Of a stretch of DNA of 64,000 bases, positions 4,504 through 64,000 are shown piece after piece. Positions within the stretch are counted from its first letter, which is position 1. Each line of letters starts with the position of its first letter. Origin of the DNA: Parvibaculaceae bacterium (GTDB taxonomy: Bacteria > Pseudomonadota > Alphaproteobacteria > JAPOUT01); NCBI GenBank assembly GCA_963457525.1, contig OY734805.1, forward strand, positions 982,984 through 1,046,983, written 5' to 3'. The position numbers and the translations under genes are program-made. Below the pieces are notes generated by a model. It had not been told where the DNA came from, ran no database searches, and saw only the letters and a program-made list of their open reading frames with translations.

Positions 4504-5325
4504 TTATGCCTCCCAGCGGGGGACGTTCTCGACGAGGTTGGCGCCGATGCGCAAAGGTTCAATTCGAACGGCGAGTCCCGTGCGGTCGTCGGTTTCGATC
4601 AACACGCCGCACAAAGTCGCCTCTCCCAGCGCCGGCGAGAAACTTCCCGAGGACATGGAACGGGTGAACCGCCGCAGGGGTTCGTCGATGTTCATGCCGA
4701 TGACGGAGTTGTAATCGCCGCACATGCCCGCATCGGTTTGGTATGCGGTTCCTCCGGGGAGGATTTGCGCGTCCGCGGTCGGAACGTGGGAATGGGTTCC
4801 GACCACCAGGGAAACATGGCTGTCGCAGAAATGCCCCATTGCCATTTTTTCGGCGGTGGCTTCGGCGTGAAAGTCGACGATGACGGCGTCGCAGTCGCGT
4901 CCGAGTGCGTGGTGTTTCAAGATTTCCTCCATGACCTGAAAGGGGTTGTCGAGAGCTTCCATGAAGATGCGGCCCATCAGATTGACGGTAAGCACGCGCT
5001 TGCCCGCCGCGGTTTCAAGGAGATGGTATCCGGACCCCGGAGTTCCCTGCGGGAAATTCGCCGGACGCAGCACCCGGGGCTCGCGCTCCATGTAGGGGAT
5101 GATTTCGCGCCTGTCCCAGACGTGGTTGCCGGTGGTGATGATGTCGATGCCGGCATCCAGCAGGTTTTCGGAAATTTTTTCGGTGATTCCGAATCCGCCC
5201 GCGGCGTTTTCGCCGTTGGCGATGACGAACTCGGCGCCGAGACGCTTGCGCAGACCGGCAATGCGTTGCAACAGCAACCCCCGGCCGCTTCGCCCCATGA
5301 TGTCTCCGAGAAAAAGAATCTTCAT
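4504..5325 (-). CDS. YmdB-like metallophosphoesterase (TIGR00282 family)
   Basis: MKILFLGDIMGRSGR...GNHVWD...VDFHAE are calcineurin-like motifs. The family assignment is by resemblance. Confidence 0.7.
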   Translation of the reverse strand: MKILFLGDIMGRSGRGLLLQRIAGLRKRLGAEFVIANGENAAGGFGITEKISENLLDAGIDIITTGNHVWDRREIIPYMEREPRVLRPANFPQGTPGSGYHLLETAAGKRVLTVNLMGRIFMEALDNPFQVMEEILKHHALGRDCDAVIVDFHAEATAEKMAMGHFCDSHVSLVVGTHSHVPTADAQILPGGTAYQTDAGMCGDYNSVIGMNIDEPLRRFTRSMSSGSFSPALGEATLCGVLIETDDRTGLAVRIEPLRIGANLVENVPRWEA

Positions 5326-6705: not shown

Positions 6706-7926
6706 TTATATGACCTGCCCGGTTTGACGTTGCACGAACTCGGCCATGAGAGGTAACGCAAGGGCGTATTTGCCGTGACGATTGCGTTGGACAAATCCCT
6801 TTTGAATTAACAGATTCAGCATTTGCACGACATGGCTGGCGGAAAAACTTTTTTCCAAATCTTTTCCGGATTGTTCGGCAATTTCTTGAGCCGTAAATTC
6901 GCCTTCCAAAGTTTCTATGTTTGCAATGACCCGTATGAAATCACGTTGCCTGTCCGTCATCCGATCCCATCTTGGTGCAAAAAAATCTTGATCAAGTTTG
7001 CTTATGATTTCCCGGAACGGAATAGCGGGTTCTTGAAAAACGTCACCTCCGAGTATGTCAAATATCTCTTTGCAAATATATTGCAGGAAATAAGGATAGC
7101 CTCCGGAAAATTGAACGATGCCGTCTATGGTTGGCGCGGAAAGTCGAACCGGATTTTTTGTGAGTTCTATCGGCTTTTCGATTGCATCGCGAGCATCGCG
7201 GTCACTCAATTTGTCGAGGGTCAGAACTTCGAACATTCGCTCCGTATAGGTTCTCGCCTCATTAAGCCTTGGGAATAATACGGGCAACCCGGAAAAAATT
7301 ATCATAACCGGTGTGGTGCTGTGGTCGCGTTGCAGGGTTGAAAAGACATCCAGTAGCGTAGAAAGCGGGTACTGGCCGTTTTTTTCTTGATCCGATAGAT
7401 TTTGCGCTTCATCGTAAGCAAAAATAATCCCCTGTACGCTGCCGCCGTCCAGGAGATTCCGGGCGGTTTGAATCACCGCTTTGAGCTTGTCCCCCGTCAG
7501 CCCCGGCGTGCTTTCATAAATTCCCCATAAATCGCCGAAATCCAGGGGTATTTCGGTTTCCGTCTTCTCGGCGTTTTGGGAAGATGAGAACCCTACCGGG
7601 TTTTTTGATTGCCGTTTGCTGATGCGCGGGGTGAGGACCGAGGTCAGATCCGCCACAATGCGGCGAGCCATGTTTTCTTCCGTCATGCTTGCGGATTCGG
7701 AAATTTCGTTGTTTGCCCAGAGCCAGTGCTGCTCGTATGCAATCGGTTTGAACTCCTCCAACAAAACCGTTTTTCCGATACCGCGCAATCCCGTCAATAT
7801 CAGGTTCTTAAGAACCGGTCTTTGCTCGAGGATTTGCTTGAATTTATCCCGCTCTTTTGTTCTTCCGGCCAGGTAAACGGGTTGCTGCCCTGCCCCCGGA
7901 CGAAAGGGGTTTTGGTGTATTGCCAT
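6706..7926 (-). CDS. AAA+ ATPase of the PF01637/AAA_16 family with C-terminal wHTH-like region
   Basis: It contains NPFRPGAGQQPVYLAGRTKE, Walker A LTGLRGIGKT and Walker B IIFAYDEAQNL. The internal start at 7926 was chosen over the ORF start at 8388. Confidence 0.6.
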   Translation of the reverse strand: MAIHQNPFRPGAGQQPVYLAGRTKERDKFKQILEQRPVLKNLILTGLRGIGKTVLLEEFKPIAYEQHWLWANNEISESASMTEENMARRIVADLTSVLTPRISKRQSKNPVGFSSSQNAEKTETEIPLDFGDLWGIYESTPGLTGDKLKAVIQTARNLLDGGSVQGIIFAYDEAQNLSDQEKNGQYPLSTLLDVFSTLQRDHSTTPVMIIFSGLPVLFPRLNEARTYTERMFEVLTLDKLSDRDARDAIEKPIELTKNPVRLSAPTIDGIVQFSGGYPYFLQYICKEIFDILGGDVFQEPAIPFREIISKLDQDFFAPRWDRMTDRQRDFIRVIANIETLEGEFTAQEIAEQSGKDLEKSFSASHVVQMLNLLIQKGFVQRNRHGKYALALPLMAEFVQRQTGQVI

Positions 7927-47152: not shown

Positions 47153-50100
47153 GTGAGAAAGATGAAACAAGGTGGTGTTTTGCGAAATCGGATGTGTCTG
47201 CGGGCACCAAAGCTGCCGCTCGCCCTTTCGCTTGCGGCAATTTTGCTGGCCGGCTGCGGCGGGAGCGGAGGGGATCGCTTCGTCGGCCCGGGCAGTCCGC
47301 CGCCGCGCGAGCCGACTACCGAGGATCGCGAGGGACGTGCGGAGGAGATTTTGAAGGGGCTGGAGTTTCTCAACCAGACGGACATGCGGCTCGTGTTTGT
47401 GGAAGAGATGGAGGACGAAGACGGGGACGGAAACGGTGACGGGACCGGGAATGGCAACGGAAACGGCAACGGCAACGGCAACGGGGACGAAAACGAGGAA
47501 GAAGTCATGCGGAAGGTGTCGCCTTCCGAGTTGCAACGCATCAACGCGCATCATGCTTACGGATACACCCACAGGGGAGCCGAGTTGCTGGACGAAACCG
47601 GAGACATCAGCGGTTTCGGTGTTTACGTTGGCGTAGGCGGATTGGGACTGGAGCACAACCACGAGAAAATCCTGGGACGCTTATTCCAATCGGCTGTGCC
47701 CTATCCCGAGGATGCTTTTGACGTGTTGCGCATAGACACGGACGCTATGGCGAACCAGGAGTTCAGCGCCCAGGAACTGCTGGCGAGTCTCGATAAGTTT
47801 GGCGACATTGATGCCGTTGAAGAAAGTTTCGAAGCGCGCAAAAAGGCTTTGGTGCGCTCGCTTACCTCCCAATACTACAGTGATGACGAGGCCGCCAATA
47901 GTTATCCGGATCAGGATCGGGTTCATGCGGATTACATCATTCATATCGATGACATCAAGGACCTGACCGATGACGGTTTCGATGACCAGAAGCGATTCAC
48001 ATACCTGCGCAACATTTTGAACTGGGCGGAAGAAAATGATTTCACCGGTCCGGACGACTTCGATCCCGAAGACCCTACCGCGGATCCCCCTATCGCGGGC
48101 GACGGCACAACGGACAAGGACCTGACAGACAACTTCCGTTATATCCAAGCGGTGTGCGCGGACAAGGGAAACTACTCAAGCGGGGCGGTTACGGATTGCC
48201 CCTCCGACAGGCCGCATTTTATCGACTTCGGCGACCGTACGCCGGGGGGTCGTGATTTGCGTTTGATTCCCGATTTTTCGCAACGGCTTCTCGGTTCGCA
48301 GGCCCCCGGACTGATAGCGAACGAGCGCAACATTCACCTTGCCAATCTCTCCTCCCTCCCCGTTGAAGAAGAGAACGAAGACCTTACGGACGACCTTACG
48401 GAACTTCTGGCATTGAGGGCAATAGACGACCTTACGACCCCCGAGGAAAAGATTGAGCGCGCGCGCGAACTGCTCCCCGACCGCATCACGGAAGCAACGC
48501 CGCAGGAGCCGGAAGATATTGACGGCATTCAGAGCATTATCAACGTGCGCATCCGAGAGTTGCTGAAAATACTCGAGGTAGCGCTGGATATTCCGGAAGA
48601 CCCGGAAGCCGATCCATCCAACACGGAGAGCGAGTTAAGCCCGAAGGCTCGCATTGACAGGCGCATTGAGATTTTGTTCGCGAACCTGCGGTTCACGCCT
48701 GCGGAAGGGCCGGTGCACGGCGTCGCCTTTGGAAGCAGGATCGTTCCCCACGTCGCCAACGCCGTGCTCAGAATCGAGTGCGCCGGCGACAATGAAGAAA
48801 CCACCCCTTGCCTGGTGGCGGGCGATATTCGCAAGCCGGACGACCCGCGCACCGATCCGGACATTGACCTCGACAAATTATTCGCCGACTACATCAATGC
48901 CATTCCCGGTCCCACCGATGAGGCGGTGGATGCCGGCACGAGCGGTGACGGTGTCGAGCGGGGGGTGGATATCTTTCTGCTGGACGCGGTGGTCGAAGGC
49001 AACGGCATTGTGGGAGGCGATAGTAGAAAGACTTTCCTCAATACCCATCTTGATGAAACGCTGGCGGCGATTGAAGAATTCCTTGAACGGCGCAACAATC
49101 CGGTCATGGTCGTGCGCTCGGGTTACGGCGGTTTCGAGGGAAAACCCGATCCCGCATCGCCCGATCCCGATAACGTCATACGGGGGCCCCGAACCCTCGC
49201 CGCGCTGCCCTATCGTTACGAGACCTGCACGCAGGAAAATGTTGATGTGGACTGCCGAAACTTCCGCGGGCGAATGCTTACGGCAGCGGCCCTCAACATG
49301 CACAACAACGAGCTTCACGAAAACTCGCCGCGTTGTGGAAATCTGCCGAACGATTGGATCTCCAGAATCCACGGACGTCACTACTGCCTAACCGCTCCCG
49401 GCGACCGTCTCCGCATCAACGGCATGCTTGCATCGGACGACAACGGTGACGAAACCGTCGATCTAACCGCGGGATTCCGCAACGGCAGCAACGAGAAGCA
49501 GCCGGACGGCAGCGACGAGGATCCGGACGAATACCAGGTCGATCTGGGAGCGGCCTCCTTTGTCGCCGGATCCCTGGCGGTGCTGTCCGAGCGGTTTCGC
49601 GGACAACTCTCCGGACGCGAACTTGCATTGCGTCTCGTCAACACAGCCGACCAGGACATCTTCTACGACGACGACACACTGCTTACCGATACACCCCGTC
49701 CCACCGAGGAAGAAATGAATGATCCCGACATCATGGCGGCAGTGGAACAGGAACGCCGCACGGCGATTGAAGAGACTTATGGCGCGGGCTTGATTGATTT
49801 GGAAGCAGCGAGTGAAGTCATCGGCGAAGAGGTTGTGCGCATCCCCTCGTCCTCGGCAAGCAGGAACAAGCCGGCTTCGGCGGTGTCAACATACACGGCC
49901 ACCAAGGTGACAGCGAGCCCGGCATTCGGCGACAGCCTCGCCCTGGCGCTGTACGGCCGCGAAATCGTCACCTTCGATGAATGGGACGCGCCCTTCTGGC
50001 GTCCGTTGTCGTGGCTGGTTTCAACATCAACGAACCGGCGCTCCCTGCTCGAGCGTCGCGAGGGCGCTTCCGCTTCCGGTGCGCGCTTCGTGCCGCTGGA

Positions 50101-51067
50101 GGACGGCGGCCTGCTGGCGTTCACGACCTATCAGGACGACAAATTGTTTTCGGATGATCGCGGCAGCGGGCGCTGGGCGGAGCGTTACCGGGACGATGAT
50201 TTGGCGCAAGAACACAAGATCGAACTCTCCCTGCGCCAGCCCGTTGACGACGGCTTTGAAACCGAACTGCTTTTTGCAACCGGCCAAATCGCCGAACTGC
50301 CGCTTGGCCTGAACGCCGAGCAGGACTTCACGCATCCCTATCTCGGTTTTGCCGGCGAGGGAGTCGGTGCGGGAGGTTCGATGGCATTGGGCGCGGGCCG
50401 CGTCACCGCGCTGGGATTTTCCGGCAGCCAGGACGAAGGCGAGGAAACCTACGCCGCGCACGGCGGCCTGCTGGAATACTCCTTCGCGCCGTCCCCGTCG
50501 CTGAAAGTCGGAATGCAAACCGGTGCGCTTATTGAAGAGGAGCGCGCATTGGGATTGCGCTCGAGCGGCGCCTTCGGAAAAATAGGCACCACTTCCACGG
50601 TGTTCGCCGGTGTTTCCGTGGAAGGCGAGTTGGATGCGAACTGGCGTTTTCGTGCGCAGGCCCTGGGCGGACGGGCAAACCTGTCCGCGCCCTCCGTTGG
50701 CTTGGTGGACGATTTTTCGGGCGTTGCGACCAGTGCGTTCCGGCTGGGCATCGAGGGCTTCGGGCTGTTGCGTGAATCGGATGAATTCTCGCTGTTTGTC
50801 TCCCAGCCCCTGCGCGTCGAGAGCGGTTCGGTGGCGCTTGTCGTTCCTGTCGGGCGCACGCGGGACGGCGCGTTGCTGTCCGAGCGCATTGAAGGCGTCT
50901 CGCTTGCACCGGGCGGACGCGAGATTGAGGTTTCCGCCCGCTACGAGTTTAACCTCACCAGCGACCTTGCCTTGGGATTCGATGCCGGCATTGTCCGCGA
51001 CGGCGGGCATATCCGAGCACAGGCAATCGAGTTTTACGGCTTGGGAGACCTGCACTTCCATTTTTAA
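47153..51067 (+). CDS. Lipoprotein autotransporter, subtilase-like (S8) paralog with degenerate catalytic Ser motif and acidic repeat-rich N-region
   Basis: The lipobox is LLAGC. The region RCGNLPNDWISRIHGRHYCLTAPG...LGAASFVAGSLAV is homologous to the downstream gene, but GTSFASP is replaced. The last ~280 aa are a paralogous β-barrel-like domain ending ...LHFHF. Confidence 0.7.
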   Translation: MRKMKQGGVLRNRMCLRAPKLPLALSLAAILLAGCGGSGGDRFVGPGSPPPREPTTEDREGRAEEILKGLEFLNQTDMRLVFVEEMEDEDGDGNGDGTGNGNGNGNGNGNGDENEEEVMRKVSPSELQRINAHHAYGYTHRGAELLDETGDISGFGVYVGVGGLGLEHNHEKILGRLFQSAVPYPEDAFDVLRIDTDAMANQEFSAQELLASLDKFGDIDAVEESFEARKKALVRSLTSQYYSDDEAANSYPDQDRVHADYIIHIDDIKDLTDDGFDDQKRFTYLRNILNWAEENDFTGPDDFDPEDPTADPPIAGDGTTDKDLTDNFRYIQAVCADKGNYSSGAVTDCPSDRPHFIDFGDRTPGGRDLRLIPDFSQRLLGSQAPGLIANERNIHLANLSSLPVEEENEDLTDDLTELLALRAIDDLTTPEEKIERARELLPDRITEATPQEPEDIDGIQSIINVRIRELLKILEVALDIPEDPEADPSNTESELSPKARIDRRIEILFANLRFTPAEGPVHGVAFGSRIVPHVANAVLRIECAGDNEETTPCLVAGDIRKPDDPRTDPDIDLDKLFADYINAIPGPTDEAVDAGTSGDGVERGVDIFLLDAVVEGNGIVGGDSRKTFLNTHLDETLAAIEEFLERRNNPVMVVRSGYGGFEGKPDPASPDPDNVIRGPRTLAALPYRYETCTQENVDVDCRNFRGRMLTAAALNMHNNELHENSPRCGNLPNDWISRIHGRHYCLTAPGDRLRINGMLASDDNGDETVDLTAGFRNGSNEKQPDGSDEDPDEYQVDLGAASFVAGSLAVLSERFRGQLSGRELALRLVNTADQDIFYDDDTLLTDTPRPTEEEMNDPDIMAAVEQERRTAIEETYGAGLIDLEAASEVIGEEVVRIPSSSASRNKPASAVSTYTATKVTASPAFGDSLALALYGREIVTFDEWDAPFWRPLSWLVSTSTNRRSLLERREGASASGARFVPLEDGGLLAFTTYQDDKLFSDDRGSGRWAERYRDDDLAQEHKIELSLRQPVDDGFETELLFATGQIAELPLGLNAEQDFTHPYLGFAGEGVGAGGSMALGAGRVTALGFSGSQDEGEETYAAHGGLLEYSFAPSPSLKVGMQTGALIEEERALGLRSSGAFGKIGTTSTVFAGVSVEGELDANWRFRAQALGGRANLSAPSVGLVDDFSGVATSAFRLGIEGFGLLRESDEFSLFVSQPLRVESGSVALVVPVGRTRDGALLSERIEGVSLAPGGREIEVSARYEFNLTSDLALGFDAGIVRDGGHIRAQAIEFYGLGDLHFHF
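47450..47488 (+). repeat. Hexanucleotide (AACGGC/AATGGC)n microsatellite encoding (GN)n
   Basis: The tract aatggcaacggaaacggcaacggcaacggcaacgg lies in frame inside the subtilase-like lipoprotein. Confidence 0.6.
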
Positions 51068-51093
51068 TAGAAACGCTATAGGCTTGCCGTATT

Positions 51094-54000
51094 ATGTTCT
51101 TTTATAGCATGGACAAATTAGCGAGACGCTTACACTTGGGAGGGGGCTTTTTCATTGCCTCTCCGGCGAAGGGGCGGAGGACGGTAGAACGCGCGCCAAG
51201 GGCAAAAAAGGCGGTTTTCCTTCCGGTTGTTGCGGGTCTGGCGTTTTGTCTGCTCGTCGGTTGCGGCGGAGGCGGAGGGGACATCACGGGCGCGCATATT
51301 GGCACGGGTTTGCCCGGCGGGGATGAAGACGCCCGCCAGCTGACCGATCTTCCCGCCCGGCCCGGTCCTCCCGAGGACAGGGGGGATGTTGAACTGTCCC
51401 TCATTAATCCCGCTCGTCCGGACGGTGCAGGGAGAGGTTTGCTCAATTGGAGAAATGTGTATCAGATCCAAGCGCCGTTTGCGTGGCTCCGTTGTCCGGA
51501 TGGACAGTATAAGTGCAGTGCAGCCGGCCCAGGGATTGTCGTTGGCATTATGGAAGAGGTGAATCATTTCCACGAGTCTTTTCTTTTTGATAACCCAGAT
51601 GTGACGGGTGAGGTGGTTTACCCACAAACAAAGGTTCACCTAGCCAGCGTTTTCGGATCACCTTATCCGACGAATGCACCCGCGCCAGCCGAAAACCTCA
51701 TTGTTAACTGGGAGGATTTCACCTTTGATAGGGGGGGAGAATATCCCGAATATCCCTGTTTGTTGGAGTACGGCATTCCTTGTCCCGTGCAAGACGGCAC
51801 CCAAAAATATTTTCTGCGGCTTGACGCGAGCCGCGGCGGCGGGCTTCAAGTGTTGCCGGGCAAGAACAACACAATTGAATCCATTGAATGTTACAATGAA
51901 AGAGGACAACCCAATCTGGGCAATCCGCGATGCAGATTTGATTCCCAGGGAAACCTTCGTGTTATTTTTGTTCAAGATGTATGTCCCGTATTTAATGGCA
52001 GTTACGCATGTCCCGAGTTCGGCGCATCCCACGGCACCGGCGTTGCAGGCACCGCCGTGTCTCATTCTATTACGCTAGGAATGCGAGACGAAACCGGTTT
52101 CCGAGGCGTTGCCTATCACGCGACGCTTCTCGTCTATGCGCGACCTTTGCGGATTGCCGGGCTTCCCGCCTCTTTTGCCGACCACGCCAGGTATCTCCTG
52201 GACGCTCCGGCCGCGGCCGATGTTTATAATTTCTCGCATACCTTCGGCACGCAAGTCCAAGGAACCTCCGGTGCTTTCGCGGACCGGGTGCGCTCGCCCC
52301 GGAGCGGTTTCTCCCAACTCGCTGTCGCCTTAAGATGTTTGGGCACATCTCAAACAAGTTCGTGCTCCAATGAAGAGGCCACGCCCTTTATTGCGGCATC
52401 CGGCAACGACGGCGAAGCTTTTCCGCGCTTTCCGGCGGCACTGCCGGTGTTCTTTGATTATTTACGCGGGCAGGTTCTCGCGGTCACGGCGACGGACAAT
52501 ACCGGCGTAATTACCCCCTATGCGAATCGTTGCGGCGCGTTGCCTTCGGACTGGAACAGGAACACTCAGGGACGACATTATTGCCTCGCGGCTCCCGGAG
52601 GCGCTAATGTGGCCCCCATCGGGCAAAATCGGTTTTGGGTGTCGGGCCCCGCAGAAGGGGTGTATTCGCCGGTCTTGGGAACCTCCTTTGCCTCGCCGGT
52701 GGTTGCGGGAGGGTTTGCTGTCGTGAAGGAACATTTTCGCGACGATGACGGTATGGATACCATGAGCGATCGGGAACTTCTCCTTCGTCTGGTAAATACG
52801 GCAAATAACACGAATTGTGCAAGGGAGGCGAACCGTAACGAAGACGGCCCGTGCGACGTTTGGGGTCCCGGCGTCCTGATGGGTGATTACAGCAACGAGG
52901 CGGTCTATGGTGCCGGCCTGCTCGACCTTAATGCAGCGACCGCTCCGGTCGGGATGCAGCGCATGTCCGCCTTCGGCGACGTCAACGGGGGGATCACCTA
53001 TGATTTCGATGTGACATCATTGACGACATCGGCGGCCTTCGGCGACGCGTTCCAACGGGCATTGCACGCCCAGAAGATTGCCGTCTTCGATGAACTTAAT
53101 GCCCCGTTTTGGTATCCGCTCGCTACGCTCATGACAACGACGGCAAGCCGTGAAACCCTTCAAGAGCGCCACGCGCGCCTGTTCGATCGCGACAATGCGC
53201 CGATCGAGACGGCGTTCGGCGGCCGGCTTGCGCTGACATCAACGCACACCGGCTCGTCCGAACAAATCGATATGTCCCTGCGGCAGCCCGTCGATTCGAT
53301 CGCGCAGACGGAACTGCTGCTGACGGCGGGAGATCTCTCCACCGCGCCGCTCGGACTTCACGACGACAAATCCTTCGCACATCCCTATCTCCACTTTGCC
53401 GGCGAGGGCGTCGGCCTAGGCGGTTCGTTGCAACTCGGCGCGGGACGGCTCACGGCGATGGGATTCACAAGCGGCAGCGCGAGCGTTCCCGAGGACATAC
53501 CCGTTGAAGCCCACGGGGGCATGGTAGAATACGCACTCGAACCACTCGAGGGTGTTGCGCTCGGCGTGCAAGCGGGTGCAATGGTGGAGGGCTCGCGTGC
53601 GCTGGGACTGCTTCCGGAAGGCGGCTTCGGCGCGTTGGGCGAATCTTCCACGGCGTTTGCGGGAGTCTCCCTGGACGGCTCGTTGGAGGACGGCTGGCGC
53701 TTTCGCGCAAGCATGCTCTTCGGACGCACGAATCTTGATACGCCCTCCATCGGTTTGCTTGCGACAAGTTCGAGTCTCGAAAGTTCGGCGTTTCGTTTTG
53801 CCTTTGAGGGAAGCGATGTTCTCCTGGATGCGGACCGGGTAGACGTTTTCGTCGCGCAACCCTTGCGCATCGAAGGCGGCGATGCGGATTTCATCGTTCC
53901 TGTTTCGCGCACGCCTTCGGGTTTGGTCACGCGCGAGCGGATCTCCGGCGTTTCGCTTGAGCCGGGCGGCCGGGAGTTGGAATTCGGCACGCGCTACGAG

Positions 54001-54120
54001 ATGCAAGTGCGCGAAGACATTGTTGCAACCGGGGGCGTCGGCATCGTTCACGAGGGCGGGCATTCGAAGTGGCAAGAAACCGAGCTTTACGGCTTGGCAA
54101 ATCTGCGCATCGAGTTTTAA
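51094..54120 (+). CDS. Lipoprotein autotransporter subtilase (S8; NalP/SphB1-like)
   Basis: The lipobox is LLVGCGGGGG. The His motif SHGTGVAGTAV and Ser motif LGTSFASPVVAG are recognisable. The C-terminal β-barrel-like domain ends ...LRIEF. It starts 26 bp after its paralog. Confidence 0.75.
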   Translation: MFFYSMDKLARRLHLGGGFFIASPAKGRRTVERAPRAKKAVFLPVVAGLAFCLLVGCGGGGGDITGAHIGTGLPGGDEDARQLTDLPARPGPPEDRGDVELSLINPARPDGAGRGLLNWRNVYQIQAPFAWLRCPDGQYKCSAAGPGIVVGIMEEVNHFHESFLFDNPDVTGEVVYPQTKVHLASVFGSPYPTNAPAPAENLIVNWEDFTFDRGGEYPEYPCLLEYGIPCPVQDGTQKYFLRLDASRGGGLQVLPGKNNTIESIECYNERGQPNLGNPRCRFDSQGNLRVIFVQDVCPVFNGSYACPEFGASHGTGVAGTAVSHSITLGMRDETGFRGVAYHATLLVYARPLRIAGLPASFADHARYLLDAPAAADVYNFSHTFGTQVQGTSGAFADRVRSPRSGFSQLAVALRCLGTSQTSSCSNEEATPFIAASGNDGEAFPRFPAALPVFFDYLRGQVLAVTATDNTGVITPYANRCGALPSDWNRNTQGRHYCLAAPGGANVAPIGQNRFWVSGPAEGVYSPVLGTSFASPVVAGGFAVVKEHFRDDDGMDTMSDRELLLRLVNTANNTNCAREANRNEDGPCDVWGPGVLMGDYSNEAVYGAGLLDLNAATAPVGMQRMSAFGDVNGGITYDFDVTSLTTSAAFGDAFQRALHAQKIAVFDELNAPFWYPLATLMTTTASRETLQERHARLFDRDNAPIETAFGGRLALTSTHTGSSEQIDMSLRQPVDSIAQTELLLTAGDLSTAPLGLHDDKSFAHPYLHFAGEGVGLGGSLQLGAGRLTAMGFTSGSASVPEDIPVEAHGGMVEYALEPLEGVALGVQAGAMVEGSRALGLLPEGGFGALGESSTAFAGVSLDGSLEDGWRFRASMLFGRTNLDTPSIGLLATSSSLESSAFRFAFEGSDVLLDADRVDVFVAQPLRIEGGDADFIVPVSRTPSGLVTRERISGVSLEPGGRELEFGTRYEMQVREDIVATGGVGIVHEGGHSKWQETELYGLANLRIEF

Positions 54121-54218
54121 GAAAAGACGCCGCAGGCCGGCCGTGCCTGTTTCCATGATACGGGACGTGCAGAGGACGCCCTCCTTTGAGGCGTCCTTTC
54201 TTTTTATCCGAAATTCAT

Positions 54219-54440
54219 CGAAAGAAGCCCCGGCAAAATCTTTTGGATGATGCCGAGGCTTCTCCCCTTCGAGTTGAGTTCTTTGGTTTGCAGACAACCA
54301 CGAAGGTTTATTCGTAACTAATAGATTCTAGTTTAACGGGAAACTCAAGACTTTTTTTCCTTAAATCCGCCTATCCGTTAATTGCCAACGGAAAACGGGG
54401 GGATTTCAAATGTTGATTTTTGCCTTGCCGGACGTCTTGC
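54219..54440 (+). repeat. Copy A of a ~230-bp conserved non-coding element (hairpin block plus downstream blocks)
   Basis: Four to five collinear blocks are shared with 62708-62960, e.g. gaaagaagccccggcaaaatcttttggatgatgccgaggcttctccccttcgagttgagtt and aattgccaacggaaaacgggg. Confidence 0.65.
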
Positions 54441-54787
54441 TAATTCCGGCAGAGTTACTTTTAGGACTCAGCCATGAGCAAAATTACGAAAAAGACAGCC
54501 TGGCGTAATATAACCGGTTTGGCGGTGAGGGGTTTTAGAACCTCCATATACCCAATCTATCCCCCTCGCCGCCTCTTCTCCGATAATTCCTGCCAAGGTC
54601 CGTAATAATCCCGTAAGGCATTTCATCACAGTCATTGCATTGTTCGGGTTGGTGTTTTTGTCCGCGGATTTCGTTCAAGCTCAACGCCGGATTTTGCCGA
54701 ATCGGTTGAATTCTGCTACAAATAACCCGTTCGCGACTGCATTGAAAACGGCAATCGGGACGCTAGAGTGGGAATCGGAGGCACCGC

Positions 54788-60514: not shown

Positions 60515-61386
60515 AAATGATAATCCCCCGAAAGGACACGCGCATCATCGTCCAGGGAATTACGGGCAAGCAGGGAAGTTTTTGGACCGAACGAATGCAG
60601 GAATACGGCGCCGCCGTCGTGGGCGGCGTTAATCCGAAAAAAAGCGGCACCATCCATTGCGGCGTGCCGGTTTACGGCAGCGCCGGGGAAGCCGCGAACG
60701 ACGGGTTTGATGCGTCCGTTCTGTTTATTCCGCCTTTGGGCGTCAAGGCTGCGGTTCTTGATGCAATCGAAGCGGGTGCGAAAATGGTGCTTGTCCTTAC
60801 GGAACATGTTCCGGTTCAAGATGTCATGTATGTCCTGGCCGCCGCGAAGGAAGCCGGCACCCGGATCGTTGGACCGAACACCGCGGGATGCGTAACGGTC
60901 GGGGAGACCTTCATGGGTTTCATGCCGGCTTTCAATCAACGAATTTTCAAGAAGGGAAGCGTTGGTGTTCTGTCCCGGTCCGGCAGTCTCGGAACTCTCT
61001 TGTGCCAAAATATTGTTTCGGCCGGTTTTGGACAATCGGCCTTTGTCGGCATAGGCGGCGATACAATCATCGGCACGACCACCCGGGACGCCGTTGAGGC
61101 GCTGGATAAACTTCCGGGAACCGAAGCGATTGTCCTGGTGGGAGAAATCGGCGGGGACATGGAGGAAAGCGCCGCCGAATACATTGCGGGCATGGAGAAG
61201 CCCGTTGTCGCATTCATTGCGGGCAGTGCGGCTCCGAGCGGTAAAAAAATGGGACATGCCGGCGCCATCATCAGCGGCGGCAGAGGTACATACGGGTCCA
61301 AAAAAGCCGCGCTGGAATCCGCAGGCGTGCACGTGTTGGCGACTCCGGTTCATGTCGGCGACGCCTTGCGGGAAGCATTGGGTTAA
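60511..61386 (+). CDS. ADP-forming acyl-CoA synthetase α-subunit (SucD-like)
   Basis: IIVQGITGKQGSFWTE...SRSGSLGTL...MGHAGAI (phospho-His loop) is present. It overlaps the upstream gene by 4 bp. Confidence 0.85.
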   Translation: MKMIIPRKDTRIIVQGITGKQGSFWTERMQEYGAAVVGGVNPKKSGTIHCGVPVYGSAGEAANDGFDASVLFIPPLGVKAAVLDAIEAGAKMVLVLTEHVPVQDVMYVLAAAKEAGTRIVGPNTAGCVTVGETFMGFMPAFNQRIFKKGSVGVLSRSGSLGTLLCQNIVSAGFGQSAFVGIGGDTIIGTTTRDAVEALDKLPGTEAIVLVGEIGGDMEESAAEYIAGMEKPVVAFIAGSAAPSGKKMGHAGAIISGGRGTYGSKKAALESAGVHVLATPVHVGDALREALG

Positions 61387-61540
61387 AATTGAATCTGTCC
61401 GCCAAAACGCGGCGATTTGCGAGGGTTTTTCCAGCTTGAAATTTAAATCTTGCAATTAATCATAGCAGTTTTTGCGATGATTAATCTTGATTTTGCGGGG
61501 AATAGCCCCCATAATCGTCTTAAATTTTGCGGTGATTGAC

Positions 61541-62683: not shown

Positions 62684-62707
62684 CTGCCGATTTGTCTGTG
62701 TGTTCGC

Positions 62708-62960
62708 CGAAAAAGCCCCGACAAAATCTTTTGGATAATGCCGGGGCTCCCTTCGAGTTGGGTTTGTCCGTTTGATTGGTTTACAGACGTGTGCCATCTG
62801 TTCGTACTCCGGCAACGTAATCAAGCTGTTTTTCCGGTAAATCCGGGCACTTATGCAATTGCCATCGGAAAACGGGTGGTTTCGGGGAGTGGAAAAACCG
62901 CCGGAACGCGGGAAAAAATTGCGAATCGCTTGTGATTTTTGCCGGAAATGCGCCGGTAAT
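62708..62960 (+). repeat. Copy B of the ~230-bp conserved non-coding element
   Basis: The blocks gaaaaagccccgacaaaatcttttggataatgccggggctcccttcgagttgggtt ... ggtttacagac ... tttttccggtaaatccggg ... aattgccatcggaaaacgggtgg ... tgatttttgccgg are shared with copy A. Confidence 0.65.
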
Positions 62961-63435
62961 TCGGGGATCTTCGATGCGGCTTGGGGCGTGGACGCGCCCC
63001 ATAACGACCGGGCAACGGGAATCATGCCGATTCGCCCGCCTCCGGAGATGCAAAAAACGGCCGATAACGCCGCTTCCATCGTCAAATATCCCGACCAAAC
63101 ACGGGGGGCGCTCCTGCTGTTTCACGGGTCGCGATTTTCTTGGTCGCACGCTCACGGGCATGTTGTAAATTCCCCGGATTTTCGCCGGAAATCGCGCTAA
63201 CTTCCCCGAAATTATCGCAAAAACAGGCGGTTTTCCGTCGCCGGTTGCCGCACGCCCCGCGCCCCAGGGTGAATTCATACCGGTTAAAACTGTGTCATTC
63301 TTGCCACACGATTTTGATAAAAATACGATTCGGGCGTTTTTCTGTTGGCATTGCGCGGAAAATTGCACATTGTGTATGTGTGGCAAGTAAGCCACGATTC
63401 TTACCTAACCAAAATATGAGGATGGAGAAATACAA

Positions 63436-64000
63436 ATGAGAAAAGTTTTACTAGGAACAACGGCTTTCGTCGCTGCCTCTGTGGTTGCTTCGGGAGCCTC
63501 TGCGCAGTCCCTTGAGGACCGCATTCGCACTCTTGAAGAGTCCATGCTGATGGGTTCTCCCGGATCCGGCTTTGATGTCGGCGTGTCGGGTTACATGCAC
63601 GGTGGATTCTTCCTCGTGGACATTGACGACAACCCCGCAACCACGGCGGAAGAGGATTACGGCAGCACCGATGTCAAAATCGGTGCAACGGAGATCCACT
63701 TCACCGCAACAGGACAGCTCGACAACGGAATCGAAGTCGGTGGTCGTGTTGAACTTGAAGGCACAACGCAAACCGACCAGATTGACGAAACCTACATCTG
63801 GGCGGAAGGCGGTTTCGGTCGCATGGTCATCGGTGCCGAAAACGGCCCCTCGTACCTGATGCACTACTCGGCCCCCTGGATTGCCGGCGTCAACGGTGTT
63901 GACTCCCCGAACTACCGCTACACGACGCATGGCGGAGCTGCCCGCACCAACACGCAAACCCTGATTGCGTCGGATGCGAATAAGATCACTTATTTCACTC
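63436..64000 (+). CDS. Alphaproteobacterial general porin (partial, runs off window end)
   Basis: Signal peptide MRKVLLGTTAFVAASVVASGASAQS and LEDRIRTLEE...SGYMHGGFF are present. The RBS is gaggatggag. No stop is seen within the window. Confidence 0.65.
   Translation, partial: MRKVLLGTTAFVAASVVASGASAQSLEDRIRTLEESMLMGSPGSGFDVGVSGYMHGGFFLVDIDDNPATTAEEDYGSTDVKIGATEIHFTATGQLDNGIEVGGRVELEGTTQTDQIDETYIWAEGGFGRMVIGAENGPSYLMHYSAPWIAGVNGVDSPNYRYTTHGGAARTNTQTLIASDANKITYFT

Follow-up and report, generated by a model that had tools for sequence, protein, structure and literature searches.

Which kind of feature is a non-coding element of about 200–250 bases that stands twice between the genes of an uncultured alphaproteobacterium? 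The question is raised by a 64,000-nt stretch of contig OY734805.1 (positions 982,984 to 1,046,983 of the forward strand) in the Parvibaculaceae bacterium assembly GCA_963457525.1; this whole stretch was analysed and is hereafter called the window, and coordinates without a contig label refer to it. Two copies, A and B, are present in the window and at least two more in close relatives, and the element is conserved mainly in primary sequence. On the basis of sequence features it is tentatively read as a small lineage-specific family of paralogous small RNA (sRNA) genes on the minus strand with a common upstream motif module, a reading that is given somewhat less than an even chance.

Two copies built of conserved blocks

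In a blastn comparison inside the window, positions 54214–54405 matched 62703–62882 with 67% identity over 197 columns (E ~4e-14). No other blastn match came near the score of this pair, and no third full copy was present in the 64-kb window. The similarity consists of collinear conserved blocks with variable spacers between them, i.e. the loop of a hairpin, AAAATCTTTTGGAT (at 54235 in A and 62723 in B), block 2, CCCTTCGAGTTG (54265 and 62749), block 3, GGTTTRCAGAC (54285 and 62778), and words of block 4, TAAATCCG (54362 and 62838), block 5, AATTGCCAWCGGAAAACGGG (54380 and 62857), and block 6, TGATTTTTGCC (54414 and 62933). The blocks named in the original prediction were found at both loci and nowhere else within the window; its claim of two related segments sharing collinear blocks was borne out both by blastn and by every block that it had listed. 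The copies and their parts were delimited as follows.

54214–54445, minus strand: copy A, found by profile search (nhmmer) at 54207–54443 with E 1e-53.
54218–54225, minus strand: U-rich tail UCUUUCGA of copy A, directly 3′ of the hairpin; the A/B similarity ends here.
54226–54260, minus strand: hairpin of copy A from sequence and folding, with arms 54226–54235 and 54251–54260 and a 15-nt loop.
54265–54295, minus strand: blocks 2 and 3 of copy A, reading CCCTTCGAGTTG (54265–54276) and GGTTTGCAGAC (54285–54295) on the plus strand and GUCUGCAAACC ... CAACUCGAAGGG on the minus strand, immediately 5′ of the hairpin.
54353–54402, minus strand: blocks 4 and 5 of copy A, reading TTTTTCC..TAAATCCG and AATTGCCAACGGAAAACGGGGGG on the plus strand and CCCCGTTTTCCGTTGGCAATT ... 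GGATTTAAGGAAAAA on the minus strand.
54414–54445, minus strand: right-end block 6 of copy A (TGATTTTTGCC TTGCCGGA .. TAATTC), the right boundary of similarity.
62703–62957, minus strand: copy B, found by nhmmer at 62695–62957 with E 3e-80.
62706–62713, minus strand: U-run UUUUCGGC of copy B (five U including the closing pair), directly 3′ of the hairpin; the A/B similarity ends here.
62714–62748, minus strand: hairpin of copy B from sequence and folding, with arms 62714–62723 and 62739–62748 and a 15-nt loop.
62749–62788, minus strand: blocks 2 (62749–62760) and 3 (62778–62788) of copy B.
62829–62879, minus strand: blocks 4 (TTTTTCCGGTAAATCCGGG) and 5 (AATTGCCATCGGAAAACGGGTGG) of copy B.
62885–62930, no strand assigned: segment of about 45 nt present in B, in a copy C and in an inferred copy E, missing from A.
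62933–62957, minus strand: right-end block 6 of copy B (TGATTTTTGCCGGAAATGCGCCGG), the right boundary of the B/C similarity.

Conservation between A and B is truly blockwise and not a uniform 67%. The variance of A/B identity in 10-nt windows was 8.8, as against 2.3 for permuted columns, a value reached by none of 5000 permutations, and columns identical in A and B were preferentially kept in the third copy, C (odds ratio 2.8, p = 0.003). Across all copies, block 5 is nearly invariant.

Open reading frames across the element

The element is non-coding. A 4-nt insertion or deletion (indel) between block 2 and the hairpin, together with further indels, separates A from B, and because of these the plus-strand open reading frames (ORFs; MPGL...), which begin at an ATG in the 3′ arm of the hairpin, read blocks 2 and 3 in different frames in the two copies. 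With frames not conserved between A and B, these ORFs were rejected as a small protein gene, and a minus-strand ORF of 4–5 codons inside block 5 was likewise rejected as coding.

Annotation pipelines call a gene from a 204-codon minus-strand ORF at 62781–63395 that has a high content of Arg, Pro and Gly. It had no NCBIfam match and no Pfam hit recorded in the gene tables, three of its nine strain single-nucleotide polymorphisms (SNPs) fell at third codon positions, and its product (P0255) had one other match, the 139-aa P0256, among 1.84 billion representative proteins. This match covers exactly the portion of the ORF that overlaps the element, and P0256 is therefore the translation of another copy of the element, E, in a related organism. 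Having no family match, no third-position SNP bias and an element copy as its sole "homologue", the ORF was rejected as a real gene. The intergenic regions of A and B are as long as originally described (667 and 752 nt) and not free of ORFs as had been stated, the exception being this apparently spurious one. Gene callers turn copy B and a related copy into "hypothetical proteins" of 204 and 139 aa, a spurious protein family. Since no credible minus-strand protein gene is present there, a transcript of the minus strand would be non-coding.

Hairpin, strand and terminator anatomy

The hairpin of the original prediction was recovered at both loci, with a loop of 15 nt; its variable 5′-arm position, given there as Y at position 5, is in fact G/A at stem position 8 (agccccgRca). 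The sequences agreed with the prediction in carrying one plus-strand mismatch per copy at different stem positions (C·A in A, A·C in B), and both mismatches are G-U pairs on the minus strand. On that strand the 10-bp stem is unbroken with one G-U in either copy, as AGCCUCGGCA..(AUC.....GAU)..UGCCGGGGCU in A (-20.2 kcal/mol, against -17.2 kcal/mol on the plus strand with its mismatch) and as AGCCCCGGCA..(AUC.....GAU)..UGUCGGGGCU in B (-21.4 against -15.8 kcal/mol). The stem is GC-rich, extends to 13 bp when the inner helix is counted, and has minus-strand z-scores of -5.7 and -6.0.

Directly after the stem the minus strand continues as UCUUUCG or UUUUUCGG, and the A/B similarity ends within 10 nt of this tail, while on the plus strand no T-run follows the hairpin in A or B. 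Folding of the 130–150-nt stretch that ends at the hairpin gave z-scores of -4.0/-5.0 for the minus strand versus -2.8/-1.0 for the plus strand, and the two-sequence consensus fold reached -34.6 kcal/mol on the minus strand versus -23.1 kcal/mol on the plus strand, where the consensus loses the hairpin. A stable GC-rich stem-loop with an immediate U-tract, the mark of a Rho-independent terminator, is present on the minus strand, and hairpin and U-run together have the anatomy of an intrinsic terminator, one that would end a minus-strand transcript running against the upstream gene. A simple terminator scan passed over this hairpin, its loop being longer than 8 nt. The same wobble logic gives the correct (plus) strand for the terminator of the autotransporter-like gene preceding copy A, where a strain variant keeps G-U. 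Intrinsic terminators resemble the element in having a GC-rich hairpin of ~-20 kcal/mol with a U-run directly after it; the element departs from them in a large loop and inner helix (15 nt in all), which hardly vary between copies otherwise only ~67% alike.

An sRNA family was among the possibilities first proposed for the element and is plausible, with the amendment that wobble pairs, U-run and folding point to the minus strand and not to the one then assumed. Each full copy would in the preferred reading be an sRNA gene, transcribed along the minus strand from right to left in window coordinates. Its right half (blocks 6, 5 and 4) would hold the promoter and a regulator-binding region. From a putative start site there, the transcript would pass the fast-evolving central spacer and then the two short conserved blocks GUCUGYAAACC and CAACUCGAAGGG, and would end at the hairpin and U-run, a Rho-independent terminator opposed to the 3′ end of the upstream gene, which runs in the convergent direction. 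A length of about 120–210 nt is predicted for the RNA, according to its start site, and it may act in trans by base-pairing and be co-regulated with porins.

Further copies and strain variation

The strain-level contigs came from metagenome assemblies in ENA, public runs assembled in Logan and one metagenome-assembled genome at NCBI, the contig of the relative with a 93% identical TctA was labelled TARA, and a profile of A, B and C was searched against 449 kb of window and related contigs. All members found so far belong to one uncultured marine Hyphomicrobiales lineage, the name being the one that NCBI metagenome-assembled genome records give to its TctA cluster. Diverged copies do occur at other loci, and the similarity is not confined to A and B by local duplication, the outcome that would have made the element uninteresting in the original prediction.

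Copy C lies at L040:1-218 and aligns with B over 221 columns at 69.7% identity (E 6e-25). It keeps blocks 2–6, is variable in the centre and has in common with B the 45-nt segment, which carries a 4-bp hairpin (62898–62901/62908–62911) reading CCGC/GCGG in B and CCCG/CGGG in C, followed by GCGAATC. Copy C is situated about 500 nt upstream of an alphaproteobacterial transfer-messenger RNA (tmRNA) gene and at a distance of 3.2 kb from a porin gene and an OmpA-like gene. It is cut short by the contig end in both of the contigs that carry it, so that the left flank and the full hairpin lie outside them. These two contigs, L040 and L041, come from different samples; over 3.4 kb they differ by six substitutions, all of them in a 42-nt stretch of the variable centre of C. 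As the differences (L040 43–84 versus L041 1–44) stand at the very end of one contig, they could reflect strain heterogeneity, a recombination boundary or an assembly artefact. The tmRNA gene is a two-piece ssrA on the plus strand (L040 713–1021; RF01849 63.6 bits, RF04321 77.4 bits), in a 1.1-kb stretch without a called gene.

Copy E, B-like and deduced from the spurious P0256, is probably an orthologue of B, because the similarity of P0256 extends into the right flank of B. C and E show the same pattern of conserved ends and variable centre. A possible fourth copy in the contig set, L036 15846–16044, scored above 2000 shuffles of its own region but had E = 0.28 for the whole search; it is doubtful and decayed. 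In addition, part of a right-end module precedes the porin gene of L040 (L040 3102–3178), with 79.6% identity to the right end of C.

A and/or B are carried at 99.3–100% identity by 12 strain-level contigs, which are too alike for covariation, and the DNA around the copies differs by 0.5–3.5% in these contigs. The core of copy B (62700–62899) had no polymorphic site in nine strain contigs, and the number of polymorphic sites per 100 nt was 2–10 in fic, 5–10 in the porin gene and about 2 in the rest of the B intergenic region (62960–63440). No presence/absence polymorphism of A or B was observed among the 12 strain contigs.

These observations bear on two other explanations. If the pair had no function and were a neutral relic left by an old local duplication, uniform decay would be expected and not blockwise conservation; the same blocks are moreover kept in C, next to ssrA, and in E, and the core of B is free of polymorphism while its flanks vary. 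The window copies do stand on either side of one operon block, 8.5 kb apart and in the same orientation, and no homologue was found outside the lineage, as a relic would have it, yet the explanation is hardly probable.

A miniature inverted-repeat transposable element (MITE), another non-autonomous mobile element or the end of an integrative element is very improbable. The element is short, non-coding, multi-copy within one lineage and intergenic, as MITEs are, it stands next to accessory genes, the contigs break at copy C, and there is a weak inverted similarity between left arm (CCGGCAAAATC) and right end (GATTTTTGCCGG). However, it has no convincing terminal inverted repeats and no target-site duplications, its copies are only 60–70% identical with indel-rich centres, A and B show no presence/absence polymorphism in the 12 strain contigs, and neither a transposase or integrase gene beside the copies nor a tRNA gene in the window was seen. 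The MITE-like repeat of the original prediction thus finds no support in its ends or in the divergence of its copies.

Genomic setting and the downstream genes

Copy A sits between an S8-peptidase autotransporter-like gene (stop 54120) and tctA (ATG 54788), and the former has its own strong plus-strand terminator at 54170–54206 (-17.3 kcal/mol). Copy B begins 20 nt past the stop (62683) of a DUF4172-Fic gene and ends about 480 nt before the ATG (63436) of a porin gene. The upstream genes are convergent with the putative minus-strand RNA. The elements adjoin these preceding genes. The start codons of tctA and the porin gene are about 340 and 480 nt away, and the supposed placement directly upstream of these two genes does not hold. 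Both downstream genes have promoter-like sites outside the element.

54742–54769, plus strand: promoter-like site of tctA, TTGAAA-16-TAGAGT, conserved in the closest relative.
63301–63329, plus strand: promoter-like site of the porin gene, TTGCCA-17-TACGAT, conserved upstream of porin paralogues.

Both elements lie further upstream than these sites, by more than 300 nt (about 300–450 nt). In L009/L010, the closest relative (TctA 93% identical), the last ~100 nt before tctA are 80% conserved, and in more distant relatives (TctA 81–85%) an IclR-type regulator gene and no element is found upstream of tctA. The element was absent upstream of tctA in L021–L023 and of porins in L035–L037; in relatives with 81–93% TctA identity it was either missing or the contig stopped short of the site. 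Porin paralogues and one orthologue share only the proximal promoter region with the window porin locus.

One of the earlier suggestions, that tctA and the porin gene have the element as a plus-strand cis-regulatory module or 5′ leader, is improbable in the light of these data. All copies do have the same orientation to a downstream plus-strand gene (tctA, porin, ssrA), and right-half motifs are met again closer to the promoters, both of porin genes and of tctA, with GATTTTGCCGA at 54690 as an example. The element is nevertheless not a leader of these genes, because it lies upstream of their own proximal conserved promoter-like sites and is absent in relatives that keep those promoters; in addition, a strong terminator separates copy A from upstream plus-strand transcription, and no Rfam cis-regulatory family matched. 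With unconserved frames and with promoter-like sites of their own for the downstream genes, the element is intergenic, non-coding and outside the transcripts of its neighbours, as is asked of an sRNA gene.

The IclR-family gene directly upstream of tctA occupies L021 8786–9559 and L022 2926–3717, a position taken in the window organism by the autotransporter-like genes and copy A. Only the ~100-nt proximal tctA promoter region is conserved, including GGATTTTGCCGAATCGGTTGAATTC at 54688–54712.

Right-half modules and the mosaic alternative

The right half of the element (blocks 6, 5 and 4) is rich in TTTTCCG/CGGAAA(A/T) words and in small CCGG-N-CCGG dyads, and its modules recur upstream of porin genes, in the window and at L040 3102–3178.

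63166–63250, plus strand: partial right-half module (blocks 5–4), inverted relative to B and pointing to the porin gene.

Within this module, 63174–63244 matched 62876–62809 in inverted orientation (blastn, 68% over 71), and GATTTTCGCCGGAAAT at 63177 matches 62934 at 15 of 16 positions. The recurrence near porins would fit a common regulatory module, and the regulator-binding module that was among the first suggestions may still apply to the right half. A dyad-like word with T-run, GC core and A-run, GATTTT(N)GCCGGAAAT, was noted at 62934–62949, 63177–63192, 54415–54433 and 54690–54700 and at L040 3096–3115; found at the right end of the element and again closer to the promoters of tctA and the porin gene, it is a possible regulator site. 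The word GATTTTGCCGG, which corresponds to its first 11 nt, occurs 14 times in the window with at most one mismatch, versus 3.45 expected, an excess that probably reflects codon usage because most of the matches lie inside genes.

Such modules also suit a mosaic intergenic repeat of the RIME/Sm-repeat, BIME/REP or NIME-like kind, which would act at the DNA level and not through a dedicated RNA. Palindromic and dyad motifs (the large hairpin, CCGG-N5-7-CCGG and GATTTTNGCCGGAAAT) would here be combined variously beside surface-protein genes and would act by protein binding, by termination or insulation, or as a recombination anchor. This alternative, although rather unlikely, is the main rival of the sRNA reading. 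A is without the 45-nt segment found in B, C and E; partial copies exist, inverted at 63166–63250 and as a right end upstream of the L040 porin gene, besides the possibly decayed copy in L036; the sequence of the hairpin loop is conserved; and neither a conserved RNA structure nor an identifiable promoter was found. The copies stand beside autotransporter, fic/toxin-antitoxin, porin and OmpA-like genes, some of them strain-variable, and two independent assemblies break inside copy C. As in RIME/BIME-type repeats, palindromes and conserved boxes seem to be combined as a mosaic in an intergenic and lineage-specific element, and such repeats are often located at gene 3′ ends, as the element is. 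Dozens of them occur in rhizobial genomes, where RIMEs and Sm-repeats are known to mimic sRNA genes and so confound sRNA prediction (PMC2573895).

On the other hand, a sequence relationship with RIME/BIME-type repeats is not seen, and the full copies keep a single, fixed block order and are far more diverged; at 60–70% identity with strongly constrained blocks, they are unlike recently spreading repeats. Copy number may be low, with two full copies in 64 kb and about four full or degenerate ones (A, B, C and a doubtful D) in ~100 kb of the lineage, a sample biased to porin loci. Nor does a mosaic repeat require a clean one-strand terminator anatomy with the boundary of similarity at the U-run.

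By analogy with the NIME/dRS3 or Correia-type repeats of Neisseria, the element might not be an RNA gene in the first place and might, as a lineage-specific mosaic module, mark the edges of strain-variable surface-protein gene cassettes (autotransporters, fic plus toxin-antitoxin, porins, OmpA-like). Cassettes would then be exchanged by recombination or integration anchored at it, within an uncultured, host-associated population of marine Hyphomicrobiales. The pointers to this idea, which is speculative and has a low probability, are the position of copies beside the most polymorphic genes of the region, and the assembly breaks and clustered differences in C.

Structure conservation, promoters and family searches

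Several observations weigh against the minus-strand sRNA reading. Outside the terminator no conserved structure was detected, RNAalifold on A, B, C1 and C2 giving -5.6 kcal/mol with no compensatory pairs or covariation; the description of the element as structured thus holds for the hairpin and fails elsewhere. The sole compensatory change is the one already described in the 4-bp hairpin of B versus C, and the only SNP in that small hairpin, 62909 C>T, keeps pairing (G-U) on the plus strand only. No sigma-70-like -35/-10 pair was present at aligned minus-strand positions in A, B and C, unlike upstream of tctA and the porin gene, where the organism has canonical promoter-like sites. Duplex scans of 56 neighbouring translation-initiation regions gave no convincing or consistent target complementarity. 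The strand argument from wobble pairs rests on two substitutions, which would agree by chance about one time in four. A hairpin that served only as a terminator would seldom have a loop so nearly invariant, a hint that its sequence has a specific role, and partial and inverted copies of sub-modules are found in mosaic repeats more typically than in sRNA genes. Minus-strand searches for sigma-54, EcfG/ECF-like and RpoH-like patterns likewise gave none at aligned positions, with inconsistent spacings.

Across the window, no Rfam 15 family reached its gathering threshold; sensitive scans of the two intergenic regions returned only noise (E 0.46–10, bits far below gathering), and in L040 1–1400 only the tmRNA was matched and not copy C. 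A word of hairpin loop and 3′ arm in 185,579 species-representative genomes, and two patterns in viral contigs, gave chance matches only, which went no further than the searched word, in exact-word searches that are insensitive to diverged copies; the block 5 word in JGI metagenomes also gave chance matches only, and the same exact word would miss copy C. Copies A and B had no blastn match in PLSDB plasmids. An integron attC site was rejected, as the arms AGCCCCGRCA/TGCCGRGGCT have no GTTRRRY core (R″/R′ sites RYYYAAC ... GTTRRRY). Read by eye, the sequence fitted none of the IHF, CRP/FNR, LysR and IclR boxes and no tRNA-like 3′ end.

Comparison with known sRNA genes

OmrA and OmrB are sibling trans-acting sRNA genes with a conserved upstream region and 3′ terminator and a variable body, AbcR1 and AbcR2 are paralogous sRNAs in Rhizobiales, and in the enterobacterial micF-ompC arrangement an sRNA gene is divergent from a porin gene. 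The element is comparable to OmrA/OmrB in being intergenic with a conserved upstream region, a variable body and a (putative) 3′ terminator, to paralogous sRNA genes in having at least two diverged copies per genome, and to micF-ompC in that copy B is upstream of, and opposite in orientation to, a porin gene. Unlike OmrA/OmrB, micF and AbcR, it is similar to no Rfam family, alphaproteobacterial sRNA families included, the predicted RNA of 120–210 nt is longer than most, and promoter, seed and target were not found.

A genuine minus-strand RNA would give these little-studied, uncultured marine Hyphomicrobiales, which are probably associated with hosts, an sRNA family specific to their lineage, and its position beside porin and envelope genes would suggest sRNA regulation of the envelope as in enterobacteria, arrived at independently. 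If the element is instead a mosaic repeat, it is one more intergenic repeat that confounds sRNA prediction in Rhizobiales-like genomes. It is an ordinary kind of feature, a lineage-specific and unclassified member of a familiar class, through which no long-standing question becomes testable.

Neighbouring genes

The porin locus is strongly strain-variable, with 85–92% protein identity of porin 1 where the tct operon is ~99% identical in DNA. Gene content near the porin gene (window 63436–64000; L011, L038, L041) also differs, L041 having ssrA, an OmpA-like gene and a helix-turn-helix gene. Some strains have an extra 1.2–1.9 kb between a sucD-like gene and fic (window ~61386–61457; L012 13895–15110, L013, L014, L015), which encodes a SocA/Panacea-domain protein and an ORF of ~105–122 aa, a toxin-antitoxin-like pair; the window strain, L011, L016, L017 and L018 are without this insert. 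In the closest tct relative, the Tara contig L009, an IS3-family transposase OrfA-like gene (6913–7510) follows the sucD-like gene and replaces fic and copy B.

Upstream of copy A, two tandem large genes (47153–51067 and 51094–54120, the second being the S8 subtilase) share diverged 3′ segments, 50299–50418 being 74% identical to 53346–53465 and 51020–51072 being 75% identical to 54073–54125, which suggests that they are tandem paralogous autotransporter-like genes. The stretch after the stop of the second gene, terminator included (window 54122–54208), has a 90-nt counterpart of 73% identity at L038 5178–5266, and a gene of that contig starts just downstream, at 5284.

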